Source of the DNA: Alphaproteobacteria bacterium
GTDB taxonomy: Bacteria > Pseudomonadota > Alphaproteobacteria > UBA828
Assembly: GCA_009691045.1 (NCBI GenBank)
Contig: SHWC01000006.1
Span: forward strand, 1,912 to 65,911
Reading direction: 5' to 3'
DNA: 64,000 bases
The position numbers and the translations under genes were made by a program. Of the stretch, positions 2,715 through 13,962 are shown one piece after another; within the stretch, counting starts at the first letter, position 1, and the number at the start of each line of letters is the position of its first letter. The notes beneath the pieces were generated by a model that ran no database searches, was not told where the DNA came from, and saw only the letters and a program-made list of their open reading frames with translations.

Positions 2715-4355
2715 ATGAATGGTGGGCAGGCACTCGTCGCAACACTGCTAAGCCACGGCGTCGAGGCCGCGTTTTGCCTGCCGGGCGAAAGCTATCTTGA
2801 GGTCATCGAGGCGCTCAGGCTCGCCAAAGACCGCCTTCGCCTGATCAACACCCGCCATGAATCAGGGGCCTCCTTCGCGGCGGCGGCCTATGGGCGCATC
2901 ACGGGGCGGCCCGGCATTGCGTTCGTGACGCGCGGCCCCGGCGCGACCAATGCCTCAATCGGCGTGCATACCGCGACGCAGGATTCGGTGCCGATGGTTC
3001 TGTTCATCGGGCAAGTACCGACGACCGAGCTTGGTCGCGAGGCGTTTCAGGAAATCGATTATGCGCGCATGTTCGGCGGCCTCGCGAAGGCCGTGTTCGA
3101 GCCGCGGAAGCCCACCGAGGTTGCAGCCATGACCGCGCAGGCCTTGACCATCGCGTGCGCGGGCCGGCCGGGGCCGGTCATCGTGTCCTTGCCCGAGGAT
3201 GTGACCGAGAACGACGCGGGGGATGTTGCCATCCCACGGCCGAGCCCGCGTCAGATCGTCGAGCCCGACGCCGCGCGCCTCAATCAGGTCGCCGACTTGA
3301 TTCGCAACGCGCGAGCGCCGCTCATCATCGCCGGCGAGCAAATCGGTTTCGAAGGCGCGCAAGCGGCGCTCATCGCGTTCGCGGAAAAAACCGGCGCCGG
3401 CGTCGTTGCCGCCTTTCGCCGTCAAGGCGTGATGCCGAGCGACCACGCCGCCTATCTCGGTCATATCGGGCTCGCGCTCACGCCCTATCAGAAGGAGATG
3501 ATGAAGGAGGTCGACCTCATCATCGCGCTCGGCAGTCGGTTCGATGGGGCGACCAGCATTGATTTTTCCTTGGTTGAATCTCATCAAACGCTGATTCAAA
3601 TTTTTCCCGACGCCAAGGTGCTTGGGCGAACGCGCGCGGCGGTGCCGGTGCTCGGTGATGTGGCGCCAACGCTCGCTGGCCTAAGCGCACGACTGAGCGA
3701 ACCACCGCCCAATCAGCGGCAAGAATGGCGCGCGCGCTGGCGCGACAAGGCGGTGGCTTTCATGCGGCCGGAGGGCCAAGACGCGCTCGGGCGGGTTGAC
3801 CAGATCGCCGTGATGAAAACGCTCGGCGCACGCCTGCCGCATGACGCAACGATCACCAATGACGCCGGAAATTTTTCGACCTGGTTGCATCGCTATATGC
3901 CGTTTCGCCAGCCTTCAAGCCAGGCGGCGCCCTGTTGTGGCGCGATGGGCTATGCGGTGGCGGGCGCGATCGGCGCGCAAATCGCGCGCCCCGGCAAGAC
4001 CGTGCTCGCGATGGTGGGCGATGGCGGATTTTTGATGACCGGCCAAGAGCTCATCACCGCGGTCGAACATGATTTGCCGATCAAAATTTTGCTGTGCGAC
4101 AACGCGGCCTACGGCACCATCGTGATGCACCAACAACGCCGATTCGGCCCCGGGCATAATCATGCGGTCGCCATGAAGAGCCCGGATTTCGCCGCCGCCG
4201 CGCGGGCCTGGGGTGCCGCCGCCTATACGGTTGACGATACCGCCGGGTTCGCGCCCGCGCTCGACGCGGCGCTCGCGCATAAGGGGCCGGCGCTCATTCA
4301 CCTCAAGACCGATTTGCGCGATCTCGCCGCCTCGGGGCTCAAGCTCTCCGCCTGA
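2715..4355 (+). CDS. Thiamine-pyrophosphate-dependent enzyme (acetolactate synthase large-subunit-like family)
   Basis: 546-aa ORF with a TPP pyrimidine-binding N-terminal domain (GVEAAFCLPGESYL) and a C-terminal GDGGF...N TPP/Mg motif (MVGDGGFLMTGQEL...CDNAAYG). Confidence 0.85.
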   Translation: MNGGQALVATLLSHGVEAAFCLPGESYLEVIEALRLAKDRLRLINTRHESGASFAAAAYGRITGRPGIAFVTRGPGATNASIGVHTATQDSVPMVLFIGQVPTTELGREAFQEIDYARMFGGLAKAVFEPRKPTEVAAMTAQALTIACAGRPGPVIVSLPEDVTENDAGDVAIPRPSPRQIVEPDAARLNQVADLIRNARAPLIIAGEQIGFEGAQAALIAFAEKTGAGVVAAFRRQGVMPSDHAAYLGHIGLALTPYQKEMMKEVDLIIALGSRFDGATSIDFSLVESHQTLIQIFPDAKVLGRTRAAVPVLGDVAPTLAGLSARLSEPPPNQRQEWRARWRDKAVAFMRPEGQDALGRVDQIAVMKTLGARLPHDATITNDAGNFSTWLHRYMPFRQPSSQAAPCCGAMGYAVAGAIGAQIARPGKTVLAMVGDGGFLMTGQELITAVEHDLPIKILLCDNAAYGTIVMHQQRRFGPGHNHAVAMKSPDFAAAARAWGAAAYTVDDTAGFAPALDAALAHKGPALIHLKTDLRDLAASGLKLSA

Positions 4356-4365
4356 GGCTCACATC

Positions 4366-5562
4366 ATGCCCAAGCGCACCGCCTCGGCCCCAAGCAAATT
4401 GACGGGGCGCTTTTTGGCAAGCCTGAAAGAGATCAACGCGGCCGAATGGGATGCCTGCGCGGGCACGGACCATCCGTTCGTGCGGCATGCGTTTTTGAGT
4501 GCGCTCGAAGATAGCGGCTCGGCGGTCGCGGCGACCGGTTGGTTGGCGCGCCATGTCGTGGTCGAGGATGAGACGCGAGGCGTGGTCGGCGTCATGCCGA
4601 TGTATGCCAAGAGCCATTCTTATGGCGAATATGTCTTCGATCATGGCTGGGCCGAGGCGTTTGAGCGCGCCGGTGGGCGCTATTACCCGAAGCTTCAAGT
4701 GGCGGTGCCGTTCACGCCGGTGCCCGGCCCGCGCCTGATGGCGCGAGCGGACTGCAATACAGTCGCCGTGTTCGATGCCTTGATCGACTCCGCGCTTGCG
4801 CTCGCCGATGAAGCGGCCTTGTCGTCACTGCACCTGACATTCTTGCCCGAGGCCGATGCCACGGCCTTGAAGGCGCGCGATCTGCTCCATCGCACCGGGC
4901 TCCAATTTCATTGGATGAATCAGGGCTATGCGACTTTCGATGACTTTCTCTCGACGCTCGCCGCGCGGAAGCGCAAGCAGATCAAACGCGAACGGCGCGA
5001 GGCGCTACAGGCGGGGCTCAATGTGCGCGTGCTCAGCAGCCGCGACATCGAAGAGCGTCATTGGGATGCGTTCTTCGCTTTCTATGAAGACACGGGAAGC
5101 CGCAAATGGGGCGCGCCCTATTTGACGCGCGCGTTCTTTAGCTTGCTCAGCGAGCGCATGGCCGATGCGATTGTTTTGATCCTGGTTGAGCGCGTCGGTC
5201 GCCCGATCGCAGGCGCGCTCAATTTGCGGGGCAGCGATGCACTCTATGGGCGCAATTGGGGGGCGCTTGAGCACCACCCCTTCCTCCATTTCGAGGTCTG
5301 CTATTACCAGGCGATTGACTATGCGATCGCGCACGGCCTAGCCCGCGTCGAAGCGGGTGCCCAGGGCGAGCATAAACTGGCCCGCGGTTATTTGCCGGTG
5401 GCGACCCATAGCAGTCACTGGATCGCCCATGAGGGCTTGCGCCAAGCGGTTCGGGGATTCTTGGCGCGCGAAACGCCAGCGGTCGCCCAGGAAATCGAAC
5501 TCCTCGCCGATCATGGCCCGTTCCGCCACGGTGCCTCGGCGGCAACATCGAACGACGGCTGA
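4366..5562 (+). CDS. DUF482 / FemAB-like GNAT-fold protein
   Basis: ORF 4213..5562 trimmed to ATG 4366, just after the upstream gene's stop. The sequence MPKRTASAPSKLTGRFLASLKEINAAEWDAC... matches my recollection of the conserved alphaproteobacterial DUF482 family. Confidence 0.65.
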   Translation: MPKRTASAPSKLTGRFLASLKEINAAEWDACAGTDHPFVRHAFLSALEDSGSAVAATGWLARHVVVEDETRGVVGVMPMYAKSHSYGEYVFDHGWAEAFERAGGRYYPKLQVAVPFTPVPGPRLMARADCNTVAVFDALIDSALALADEAALSSLHLTFLPEADATALKARDLLHRTGLQFHWMNQGYATFDDFLSTLAARKRKQIKRERREALQAGLNVRVLSSRDIEERHWDAFFAFYEDTGSRKWGAPYLTRAFFSLLSERMADAIVLILVERVGRPIAGALNLRGSDALYGRNWGALEHHPFLHFEVCYYQAIDYAIAHGLARVEAGAQGEHKLARGYLPVATHSSHWIAHEGLRQAVRGFLARETPAVAQEIELLADHGPFRHGASAATSNDG

Positions 5563-11628: not shown

Positions 11629-12105
11629 ATGGACGGGCTTGAGCTGAGCCGCGCGCTGCATGTGGTGGCGGTCGTCATCTGGATCGGCGGCGTCGCCTTT
11701 GTGACGCTCACGCTCCTGCCCGTGCTTGGCCGGAGCCGCGCCAGCGATGACTGGTTTGTTCGCTTCACGGCAATCGAGCGGCGCTTTGCCTGGATTGCCC
11801 GTGCTGCCCTGCTCGTCGCCGGCGGCAGCGGCTTTTACCTGATTGTCGCGATGGACGCGTGGGACCGCTTTACCATGATCGCCTATTGGTGGATGCATGC
11901 CATGGTCGTGGTGTGGGTTCTCTTCGCGCTCATGCTGTTCGTCATCGAGCCGCTCGGGCTTGACCGCGCCCTGCGGGAACGGGCGAGGCGTGACCCCGCG
12001 CGCGCTCATTTATTGGTAAGTCGCGCTCATTGGGTGCTGCTGATCGCGTCGCTCATCGCCGCCTTCGGCGCCGTGGCTGGGAGCCACGGCGCCTTTCTCG
12101 GCTAG
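11629..12105 (+). CDS. Hypothetical 4-TM membrane protein (CopD/HemJ-like appearance)
   Basis: ORF 11569..12105 trimmed to ATG 11629 behind GGAGGA. It has four hydrophobic segments, and the first helix, LHVVAVVIWIGGVAF, has a conserved-looking His. It converges on nirK with a 7-nt gap. The family assignment is uncertain. Confidence 0.5.
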   Translation: MDGLELSRALHVVAVVIWIGGVAFVTLTLLPVLGRSRASDDWFVRFTAIERRFAWIARAALLVAGGSGFYLIVAMDAWDRFTMIAYWWMHAMVVVWVLFALMLFVIEPLGLDRALRERARRDPARAHLLVSRAHWVLLIASLIAAFGAVAGSHGAFLG

Positions 12106-12112
12106 CAGGGTT

Positions 12113-13399
12113 TTAGTGTCCGCCTGAATCGCCCGGCTTTTGCTCGCCCATATCAAAGATCTCACGGTTCTCAGGCCCTTCGGCGATGATGAAGCCGACC
12201 AAACCGCGCTCAAGCCGGCCTAGCGCATGATCGACGAGAATATAACGGCCCGGCACCTCGATCTTGAAATCGACGATGCCAGCACCGCCCGGCGGCACGA
12301 CAATCGTTTGCACGCCTTTGAGTGGCGGGCTCATGATGCTCGCGAGATTGTAGGCGTCATCGAAGATTTCGCCGATGACGTGGAAGGCCGAGGTGAAGTT
12401 CGGTCCGCCGACACCGAAATAGATGCGCACGGTTTCGCCAACCTTGGCCTTCATGGCGTGTGCTTTGGTCAGGGCGCCGACCGCACCGTTGAACACGAAA
12501 TACTTAGGCTGCTCGGCCAGCATCTTGTCGACGCTGAATTCCTGGCTGCCCTGCTCGCCGAACGGCGCCTCGGTGTACATCTCGCCCTGCATGACATAGA
12601 ACTCGCGCGACACCTTCGGCAGGCCACCTTCGGGCTCTACTAAAATCAGCCCATACATGCCGTTTGCGATGTGATGCGCGACCATCGGCGTTGCGCAGTG
12701 ATAGACATAGAGACCCGGTATCAGGGCTTTCCACTTGATCGATTTTTCTTCGCCGGGCGGCACCTGCAATGCCACCGCGCCGCCACTGGGACCGGTCGTG
12801 GCATGAAAATCGACCGAATGGATCATCGCGCTGTCGACGTCGTTTTTCATATGGATGTAGATCGTATCGCCGACACGCACGCGCAGGAACGGCCCGGGCA
12901 CAGTCCGGTTGAAGGTCCAATAACGATAGGTCGTGCCATCGGCCAAGCGGCCGTCGAGCTCGACCGATTCGAGATCGATACGCACGGTTTCGGGCCCGCT
13001 TCGATTGATTGGCGGGGGCAATTTGGTCGGGTCCATGACGATATCGACCTGCTCGGCGGCGCTGGGCGCTGCCTCGGCGACCACGAGCTTGCCTTGCATG
13101 CCGGATTCGCGCTGACCAGGCAGAGCCGAGAAGTAAGCGAAGCTTCCCGCCTTGGTGGCACGAAATGAGATCGTCGTTCCGGCACCCGCCTTGGTGACGC
13201 TTTCAGAGGTCACGTTTTGATCGGGAAAGGCGAGATTGTGCTCGCCACCTTCGCCATTGATCAGCGTCACTTGAATAACATCGCCGACCTTGGCGTTGAG
13301 CGCCGGATTAGCCTGGCCGTCGATCGCACCGCCAACGCCGATGAAGGCGACGCGGCCTTCGCTCGTTGCGGTCCGCAGCGCAAAGGCGACATCAGGCAC
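12113..13399 (-). CDS. nirK: Copper-containing nitrite reductase NirK with N-terminal cupredoxin-like domain (no signal peptide visible)
   Basis: The core has HSVDFHATTG (T1/T2 Cu His), YVYHCATPMVAHHIANGMYG (Cys-His-Met T1 ligands plus a T2 His) and FHVIGEIFD. The N-terminal ~110 aa fold like a cupredoxin. Translation starts at GTG 13399, directly after an in-frame TAA. Confidence 0.85.
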   Translation of the reverse strand: MPDVAFALRTATSEGRVAFIGVGGAIDGQANPALNAKVGDVIQVTLINGEGGEHNLAFPDQNVTSESVTKAGAGTTISFRATKAGSFAYFSALPGQRESGMQGKLVVAEAAPSAAEQVDIVMDPTKLPPPINRSGPETVRIDLESVELDGRLADGTTYRYWTFNRTVPGPFLRVRVGDTIYIHMKNDVDSAMIHSVDFHATTGPSGGAVALQVPPGEEKSIKWKALIPGLYVYHCATPMVAHHIANGMYGLILVEPEGGLPKVSREFYVMQGEMYTEAPFGEQGSQEFSVDKMLAEQPKYFVFNGAVGALTKAHAMKAKVGETVRIYFGVGGPNFTSAFHVIGEIFDDAYNLASIMSPPLKGVQTIVVPPGGAGIVDFKIEVPGRYILVDHALGRLERGLVGFIIAEGPENREIFDMGEQKPGDSGGH

Positions 13400-13871
13400 T
13401 TAGGTTAACCGCCGCGTGTTCTTCGGCCGGGAGCGCGGCGGCGGTCTTCGCGGCTTCGGGTGCCTTAACCGCTGCGCCGGCGGCTGCCTTGAGATAGGCA
13501 ATAACATTGGCGCGATCGCCGGCATCGCGCAGCCCGTTGAAGGTCATTTTGTTGCCGGGAATATTGCCTTTGGGATCGGCTAAATAGGCCCCGAGCGTTT
13601 TGTCATCCCAAACAATGCCGGACTCTTTCGTCGCCTTGGAAAACTTGAAATCCGGCTGGCTGCCGGCGGCACGGCCAACGACGCCCGCGAGGTTGGGGCC
13701 GACCTTTTTCTTTCCCGGCTCGACCGAATGGCAGGCTTGGCATTTTTGAAACACCTTCTTACCGGCTTCGGCATCGCCGGCGGCGTAACTGTTCCCGGCG
13801 GCGGCGGTGGCCGCGACGGTCGCCAAGGCAAACATAAAATGCCGTGTCGATTTTCTTTGGCTGCTGAGCAT
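13392..13871 (-). CDS. Class I c-type cytochrome (c2/c550-like) with signal peptide and Ala/Pro-rich C-terminal tail
   Basis: CQACH haem-binding motif, GNKMTF Met-ligand region and an N-terminal hydrophobic signal (FALATVAATAAAGNSYA). It overlaps the nirK start by 8 nt. Confidence 0.85.
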   Translation of the reverse strand: MLSSQRKSTRHFMFALATVAATAAAGNSYAAGDAEAGKKVFQKCQACHSVEPGKKKVGPNLAGVVGRAAGSQPDFKFSKATKESGIVWDDKTLGAYLADPKGNIPGNKMTFNGLRDAGDRANVIAYLKAAAGAAVKAPEAAKTAAALPAEEHAAVNLSA

Positions 13872-13948: not shown

Positions 13949-13962
13949 TTGATTTGGGTCAA
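13949..13962 (-). promoter_or_regulatory. FNR/NnrR/Dnr-type box TTGATTTGGGTCAA (consensus TTGAT-N4-ATCAA, one mismatch)
   Basis: Read directly. The box is centred ~85 nt upstream of the cytochrome c ATG (13871), in the 100-nt gap after the CoA-transferase gene. Confidence 0.45.

Follow-up and report, generated by a model that had tools for sequence, protein, structure and literature searches.

The closest described relatives of the gene considered here are copper nitrite reductases in which further domains are tethered to the N-terminus of the two-domain catalytic core of NirK. One of these, the four-domain enzyme Br4DNiR of Bradyrhizobium sp. ORS 375, was reportedly described by Sasaki et al. 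(FEBS J 2021), with the core alone solved (PDB 6THE). Why a cupredoxin is fused N-terminally is unclear from structural work on the tethered copper enzymes. In the Hyphomicrobium enzymes, His80 and His122 are ligands of the type-1 copper of the tethered domain (T1CuN), which in both solved structures lies about 24 Å from the type-1 copper of the core (T1Cu), a distance that the authors regarded as too great for effective transfer; yet pulse radiolysis points to T1CuN as the entry site for electrons in the presence of nitrite (PMC7201279). The isolated Hyphomicrobium core forms active trimers, as opposed to the hexamers of the full-length protein (PMC9358711). Here we describe a nirK locus on the reverse strand of a 64,000-nt stretch of alphaproteobacterial DNA (hereafter the window; positions 1,912 to 65,911 of contig SHWC01000006.1, assembly GCA_009691045.1). 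The cupredoxin encoded at this locus is, by its ligand residues, unable to form a type-1 copper site, and the gene itself has been split in two. We favour, with a probability of about 0.7, an account in two layers: an old loss of the copper site, after which the domain would have been kept as a folded module, and a recent split, which would have made the window copy a young pseudogene.

The open reading frame (ORF) under study (13399..12113, reverse strand) encodes 428 aa. Residues 1–108 (13076..13399, reverse strand) make up the cupredoxin domain; the rest (12113..13075, reverse strand) comprises a linker (residues 109–134), the two-domain NirK core (residues 135–428) and the stop codon. Matches to the Pfam families Cupredoxin_1 (PF13473) and Copper-bind (PF00127) fall within residues 32–107, those to Cu-oxidase_3 (PF07732) and Cu-oxidase_2 (PF07731) in the core, and the core was also matched by PDB 6the, which is the corresponding part of Br4DNiR (E 3.7e-143). 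The AlphaFold2 model of residues 1–110 is a beta-sandwich with a predicted local distance difference test score (pLDDT) of 77–90, and the best Foldseek matches were 6tfo, 2dv6 and 6tfd (57–59% identity, about 422 columns). Pfam, AlphaFold2 and Foldseek thus agree on a cupredoxin fold, as an initial annotation of the sequence had proposed for its first ~110 aa.

Query residues 4–105 align by phmmer, without gaps, to 6tfd and 2dv6, the three-domain enzymes of Hyphomicrobium denitrificans. Residues 54 and 96 fall on chain residues 80 and 122, the documented T1CuN ligands, and residues 91 and 101 on the Cys and the Met. At the N-terminal ligand position, aligned with His80 of 6tfd, His54 is kept (CAC, 13238..13240, reverse strand, as for the codons that follow). 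The Cys position is occupied by Ser91 (TCG, 13127..13129) and the position of the C-terminal His by Gln96 (CAG, 13112..13114), while the axial position retains Met101 (ATG, 13097..13099), which is Leu in the relatives G001 and L006. Where a type-1 site has His/Cys/His/Met (or Gln), the domain therefore holds His54, Ser91, Gln96 and Met101. The initial annotation had named the Ser and Gln substitutions, the retained Met and an intact core, and the codons and coordinates proved exact. It had also argued that a type-1 site is impossible without the Cys thiolate, which applies here with full force, because the domain contains no Cys at all. Cys235, a ligand of the core T1Cu, is the sole Cys of the ORF, none being present in residues 1–234, and His54 is the sole His in residues 1–182; there is therefore no alternative Cys/His pair from which a blue-copper site could be rebuilt, and this possibility, which would have overturned the claim, was ruled out. 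We infer that the tethered cupredoxin is copper-free and no longer an electron carrier. In the core, all T1Cu ligands (H194, C235, H243 and M248) are present in columns that match more than 100 homologues and the PDB entries, as are the ligands of the type-2 copper (T2Cu; H199, H234 and H391) and the catalytic residues D197 and H340.

The survey of this site covered homologues that carry the same N-terminal domain, counted as clusters at 90% identity. His-Cys-His-Met was found in 104 of the 108 homologue clusters; about 100 further clusters were all canonical (104 of 109 rows; the remaining five belong to the clade described below or to the protein P0139), and so were 80 of 80 metagenome loci, which brings the canonical total to about 285 homologues. 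The departure of the window from this set is no accident. The position of His54 is invariant in all homologues surveyed. The ligand-less exceptions form one clade (SH-aLRT, the Shimodaira–Hasegawa-like approximate likelihood ratio test, 98), a small group of uncultured freshwater alphaproteobacteria, in which the records of the genomes G004 and G001 come from lake samples. The ligand sets within it are graded. The deepest branch, P0004 (72–81% identity; analysed at the protein level only), has His-Ser-His-Met, the window and G004 (P0002) have His-Ser-Gln-Met, and G001 (P0373) and L006 (P0003) have His-Ser-Gln-Leu, so that Cys to Ser is common to all clade members, His to Gln to the whole genus and Met to Leu to one sub-lineage. 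Read from this gradation, the order of loss is Cys, then His, then Met, and the tethered cupredoxin of the clade ancestor lost its copper site piecemeal.

A search of 1.84 billion representatives added two more ligand-less cases. P0139, a partial four-domain protein of 499 aa from a Bauldia metagenome-assembled genome (MAG), has Ser, Gln and Met in neighbouring residues that are otherwise canonical (EHDIVFPDQ). It sits on a long terminal branch, its nearest relatives being at most 65% identical in the domain, and was grouped with canonical sequences (SH-aLRT 88), although the approximately unbiased (AU) test does not reject a single clade (p = 0.295); it may represent an independent loss of the copper ligands. 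As P0004 keeps His96, the change from His to Gln either arose twice or reverted once. The second case, P0128 (593 aa, a metagenomic representative), is a three-domain homologue of NirK that lacks cytochrome c, has His/Ser/Asn/Met in its tethered cupredoxin and has degenerated further; its core reads HSIALG where the window has HSVDFH and so is devoid of the catalytic Asp and one T2Cu His, and P0128 may be a non-catalytic NirK-like protein. Among the homologues surveyed, the Ser/Gln variant flagged in the initial annotation is confined to the small clade and the Bauldia protein. A metagenome scan with clade-specific cupredoxin patterns gave no match; one with P0004 returned canonical enzymes only, at no more than 68% identity, and these were reused as a canonical control set. 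Among contigs scanned with patterns from the cytochrome c part, mainly unrelated cytochromes c were recovered, the G004 and G001 records alone being relevant. In the searchable literature, outside which the primary paper on the four-domain enzyme lay, searches turned up no previous account of a NirK whose tethered cupredoxin has lost its ligands.

The ligand-less domain is partially relaxed, yet clearly under purifying selection in the intact orthologues. Nei–Gojobori estimates of omega (the ratio of nonsynonymous, dN, to synonymous, dS, divergence) between the intact orthologues of G004 and G001 were 0.107 for the cupredoxin (dS 0.98), 0.064 for cytochrome c (dS 1.09) and 0.047 for the core (dS 0.69), with dS near 1 partly saturated under this method. 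Canonical cupredoxins at matched core divergence (93 pairs) have a median omega of 0.044 (interquartile range 0.032–0.063) and a ratio of cupredoxin dN to core dN with a median of 1.27 (range 0.35–2.30). In the clade this ratio is 3.2, against a maximum of 3.03 and a median of 1.3 among 3,156 canonical pairs. Relative to its core, the clade cupredoxin evolves about 2.5 times faster than canonical cupredoxins do. Its identity between P0002 and P0004 is 75.5%, as compared with 88 ± 3% in canonical pairs at 85–90% core identity. Twenty-three of the 91 positions conserved at 90% or more in canonical domains differ in every clade member, and positions flanking the ligands have changed in all of them (A52G, D55N, V57A and V93L). 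The strands and the framework of glycines and prolines have been preserved, and neither indels nor stops were found in the domain across 25% amino-acid divergence.

These figures bear on the possibility that loss of the ligands was simply the first stage of pseudogenisation and that the domain is without function in any lineage. The pace of the cupredoxin, which exceeds that in every canonical pair when scaled to the core, would agree with such decay, and so would the repeated loss of the gene in the genus, where it has been deleted (G002 and G003), degraded by several lesions (L006) or split (the window). However, full-length genes with all core ligands persist intact in G004 (6 contigs), G001 (3 contigs) and P0004, an omega of 0.107 at dS of about 1 is far below neutrality, and the domain is free of indels and stops over the divergence given above; we consider decay very unlikely. 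Loss of the copper and electron-transfer function together with retention of a role as a folded module fits the data best. The domain might space out or support the haem domain, or it might serve as a surface for oligomerisation, in the way that cupredoxins meet head to head in the Hyphomicrobium hexamer. As the cytochrome c domain is strongly constrained, our estimates suggest that haem remains the point of electron entry and that the haem c domain would donate directly to the core T1Cu. The structural or docking role proposed in the initial annotation gains indirect support from the purifying selection seen in intact orthologues, in a domain that nevertheless evolves faster than its canonical counterparts. 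Its contrast with the characterised enzymes as electron relays was overstated in view of the 24 Å between their two type-1 coppers, even if pulse radiolysis speaks for T1CuN as an entry site.

A second alternative is that His54, Ser91, Gln96 and Met101 constitute a repurposed site, which binds metal (e.g. as a type-2-like copper) and has a redox or sensing role. The invariance of His54, the retained loop framework (Y89, P94, G95, G100 and G103) and the recurrence of the same Ser and Gln in the Bauldia protein, with His to Gln having arisen twice or reverted once, are compatible with this. Ser and Gln are, however, single-nucleotide neighbours of Cys and His, so the parallelism may be mutational; the thiolate is absent, Met has also become Leu in the intact G001 gene, and the second-sphere residues A52, D55, V57 and V93 have changed in all members. 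A new metal site therefore appears unlikely to us, and retention of a copper-free folded module is preferred as the older layer of our account.

The younger layer concerns the window copy. In its nearest relatives nirK encodes one fused protein of 585 aa, with AAVTYVPDVAFAL in frame across the junction (P0002 of G004; P0373 of G001), and the ancestral order was signal peptide, cytochrome c, cupredoxin and two-domain NirK core in one polypeptide, an arrangement found in the orthologues of G004 and G001 and in P0004, and not in the window. There, what used to be the N-terminal portion of the four-domain gene stands as a separate class-I cytochrome c ORF of 159 aa (13392..13871, reverse strand; PF00034, E 2.5e-11), which has the signal peptide, the haem c motif CQACH, the axial Met in PGNKM and an Ala/Pro linker, and which now stops at TGA (13394–13392). 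DNA alignment with four fused contigs, together with three-frame translations, located the splitting lesion at 13400..13406 (reverse strand). It consists of an extra A at 13406/13405 (GTTAACC in the window, GTT-ACC in relatives) and a C to A change at 13400, which turns TAC (Tyr) into TAA (13402–13400) in the NirK frame. The GTG at 13399–13397, which before the split encoded an internal Val, follows directly after this in-frame TAA, and the start of the NirK ORF overlaps the stop of the cytochrome c ORF by 8 nt (GTGCCTGA). The 428-aa ORF begins with MPDVAFALRTATSEG, which the structural model places inside the first beta-strand of the cupredoxin. The initial annotation had taken this ORF for a working NirK with an N-terminal extension; in fact it represents the 3′ portion of a split four-domain gene and is devoid of a signal peptide.

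Given that the window derives from a 67%-complete MAG, the frameshift, or indeed the Ser and Gln codons, might be suspected of being sequencing or assembly errors. The independent contig L005 (SRR8561391) has the same insertion and the same TAA, as compared with the four fused contigs, and a third assembly (ERZ1305449, European Nucleotide Archive) has the same layout of 159- and 428-aa ORFs; Ser and Gln recur in 10 or more contigs, which come from different samples and species. An artefact is hardly credible against this record, and the split, with its junction shared by an independent Logan contig and its layout by a third assembly, is a real allele. Programmed frameshifting at the junction was judged unlikely by inspection: a TAA directly precedes the GTG in the NirK frame, and a shift would need to occur at AGT-GCC-TGA, where a tRNA re-pairing site is absent. 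No second nirK was found in the genome of the window, a MAG that is only 67% complete.

NirK is a periplasmic enzyme (PMC7775769). The 428-aa ORF has neither a Sec or Tat signal peptide nor an anchor, the signal being located on the separate cytochrome c ORF, and no Shine-Dalgarno sequence precedes the GTG. As the signal peptide stays with cytochrome c, the cupredoxin-NirK piece is left without an export route; the window copy lacks a tethered haem c, and its export is improbable. The single-nucleotide insertion and the change from TAC to TAA, both at the boundary between cytochrome c and cupredoxin, have recently divided the gene in this lineage. According to our account, the downstream piece, deprived of both signal peptide and ribosome-binding site, would not reach the periplasm, so that the window copy is probably non-functional and a young pseudogene.

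The substitutions on the window branch, polarised with G001 and L006 as outgroups, are informative in this respect. With 33 synonymous and about 9 nonsynonymous changes, the branch was under constraint for most of its length. Of its eight amino-acid changes, six nevertheless fall at sites where 95% or more of 104 homologues agree: A256S, two in cytochrome c (M81T and D94G) and three in the core (D338Y, G362S and E456K). On the sister G004 branch none of seven does so (Fisher p = 0.007), and L005 has an additional P124L at a Pro conserved to 97%. Such a pattern is what would be expected from recent release from selection.

The opposite view is that the split is a functional fission, with cytochrome c and cupredoxin-NirK as two working proteins translationally coupled at the GTGCCTGA overlap. 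Several of the observations that support it also weigh against our own account, as does the partial saturation of dS mentioned above. Both ORFs are otherwise intact, with every core ligand present; the overall omega of the window branch is about 0.09 and not raised, so that the copy, if dead, died very recently; the split allele occurs in three assemblies and has therefore persisted in a population; and termination-reinitiation would be possible at the GTG, which lies 5 nt upstream of the TGA. On the other hand, the NirK piece of such a pair would start within strand 1 of the cupredoxin and remain without the signal that a periplasmic enzyme needs, its GTG would have to be used without a Shine-Dalgarno sequence, six of the eight lineage-specific substitutions hit strongly conserved positions, and the lesion itself comprises two changes within 7 nt, one of them a stop in the downstream frame. 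We regard fission into two working proteins as unlikely, and a young, probably non-functional pseudogene as the better explanation of the window copy.

The surroundings of the gene show repeated loss of nirK in the genus. Synteny is shared across it, in the order ClpS-ClpA, CoA-transferase, nirK, a convergent gene for a 158-aa membrane protein, TauD and VOC. In L006 (positions 3671–5440; GCA_009691035.1) the four-domain nirK is a pseudogene with multiple lesions: an in-frame stop before the axial Met of the haem (PGN*MTF), the T1Cu Cys replaced by Tyr (HYATP) and a T2Cu His by Arg (VDRAL). This pseudogene carries the database annotation ‘nitrite reductase, copper-containing’. The CoA-transferase gene directly adjoins TauD in G003 (L111, G003:C8:97000-104000), from which nirK and the membrane-protein gene are gone, and adjoins VOC in G002 (L112, G002:C12:6500-13500), where TauD is missing as well. 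The genus thus shows loss of a denitrification gene in stages: intact, split, multi-lesion pseudogene and deleted.

The membrane-protein gene of the window (11629..12105, forward strand) encodes four predicted helices, with weak matches to CopD and UPF0093 (E ~1e-3) below the Pfam cut-offs. It adjoins nirK in G000, G001 and G004, is frameshifted in L006 and is absent along with nirK in G002 and G003; as the two genes are present, decayed or absent together in the genus, a functional link between them is suggested. Inspection of the sequence revealed, some 85 nt ahead of the start codon of cytochrome c, an FNR/NnrR-type box, TTGAC-N4-ATCAA (TTGACCCAAATCAA; 13949..13962, reverse strand), which is kept in G004, G001, L006 and L005 with variable flanking bases and has a putative regulatory role, pointing to FNR/NnrR-type control. 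A conserved Shine-Dalgarno sequence, GAAGAGGA, precedes the cytochrome c ATG.

As to the wider significance, we would give even odds to the proposition that there are four-domain nitrite reductases with a copper-free cupredoxin long kept under selection (dS ~1), perhaps of more than one origin (the clade and the Bauldia MAG) and with a recurring change from His to Gln. If this is true, the cupredoxin of N-terminally tethered nitrite reductases performs some non-redox task on which selection can act, electrons can pass from the haem c domain to the core T1Cu without cupredoxin copper, and the intact orthologues of G004 and G001 are natural T1CuN knock-outs that could settle the purpose of N-terminal tethering: loss of the copper site in a domain kept under purifying selection separates a redox from a structural role. 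For annotation, the ‘NirK’ of this genome should be left out of any tally of working nitrite reductases, and in surveys of nirK a match to a cupredoxin domain is no guarantee of a copper site.

Among the known systems, the intact orthologues belong, by domain order and sequence, with the four-domain haem-cupredoxin-Cu nitrite reductases of the ORS 375 type. Br4DNiR has the same succession of signal or anchor, cytochrome c with CxxCH, Ala/Pro linker, cupredoxin and core; the window core is about 68% identical to 6THE, and P0110 of ORS 375 is a direct homologue. The two differ in that the ORS 375 enzyme has the full His-Cys-His-Met set (YFCSVPGHRLAGM), whereas this clade has Ser/Gln(/Leu), and in that the window copy is split, with cytochrome c in a separate ORF and a NirK part without an export signal. 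The three-domain enzymes of Hyphomicrobium are the best matches in sequence and fold, at 57–59% identity and without gaps through the cupredoxin. They have no cytochrome c domain and their tethered domains bind blue or green copper (His80 and His122), in contrast to the domain described here, which cannot form a type-1 site. In these enzymes the tethered cupredoxin also mediates formation of the hexamer, a precedent for a role beyond that of an electron relay. A further parallel is CyoA, subunit II of the cytochrome bo3 quinol oxidase, which has a cupredoxin fold without a copper site, as opposed to the CuA-bearing subunit II of cytochrome c oxidase. There, too, the fold has been kept structurally in an active redox enzyme after loss of the ligands, although the two cases involve different enzyme families and different kinds of copper centre, and the likeness is one of analogy only.

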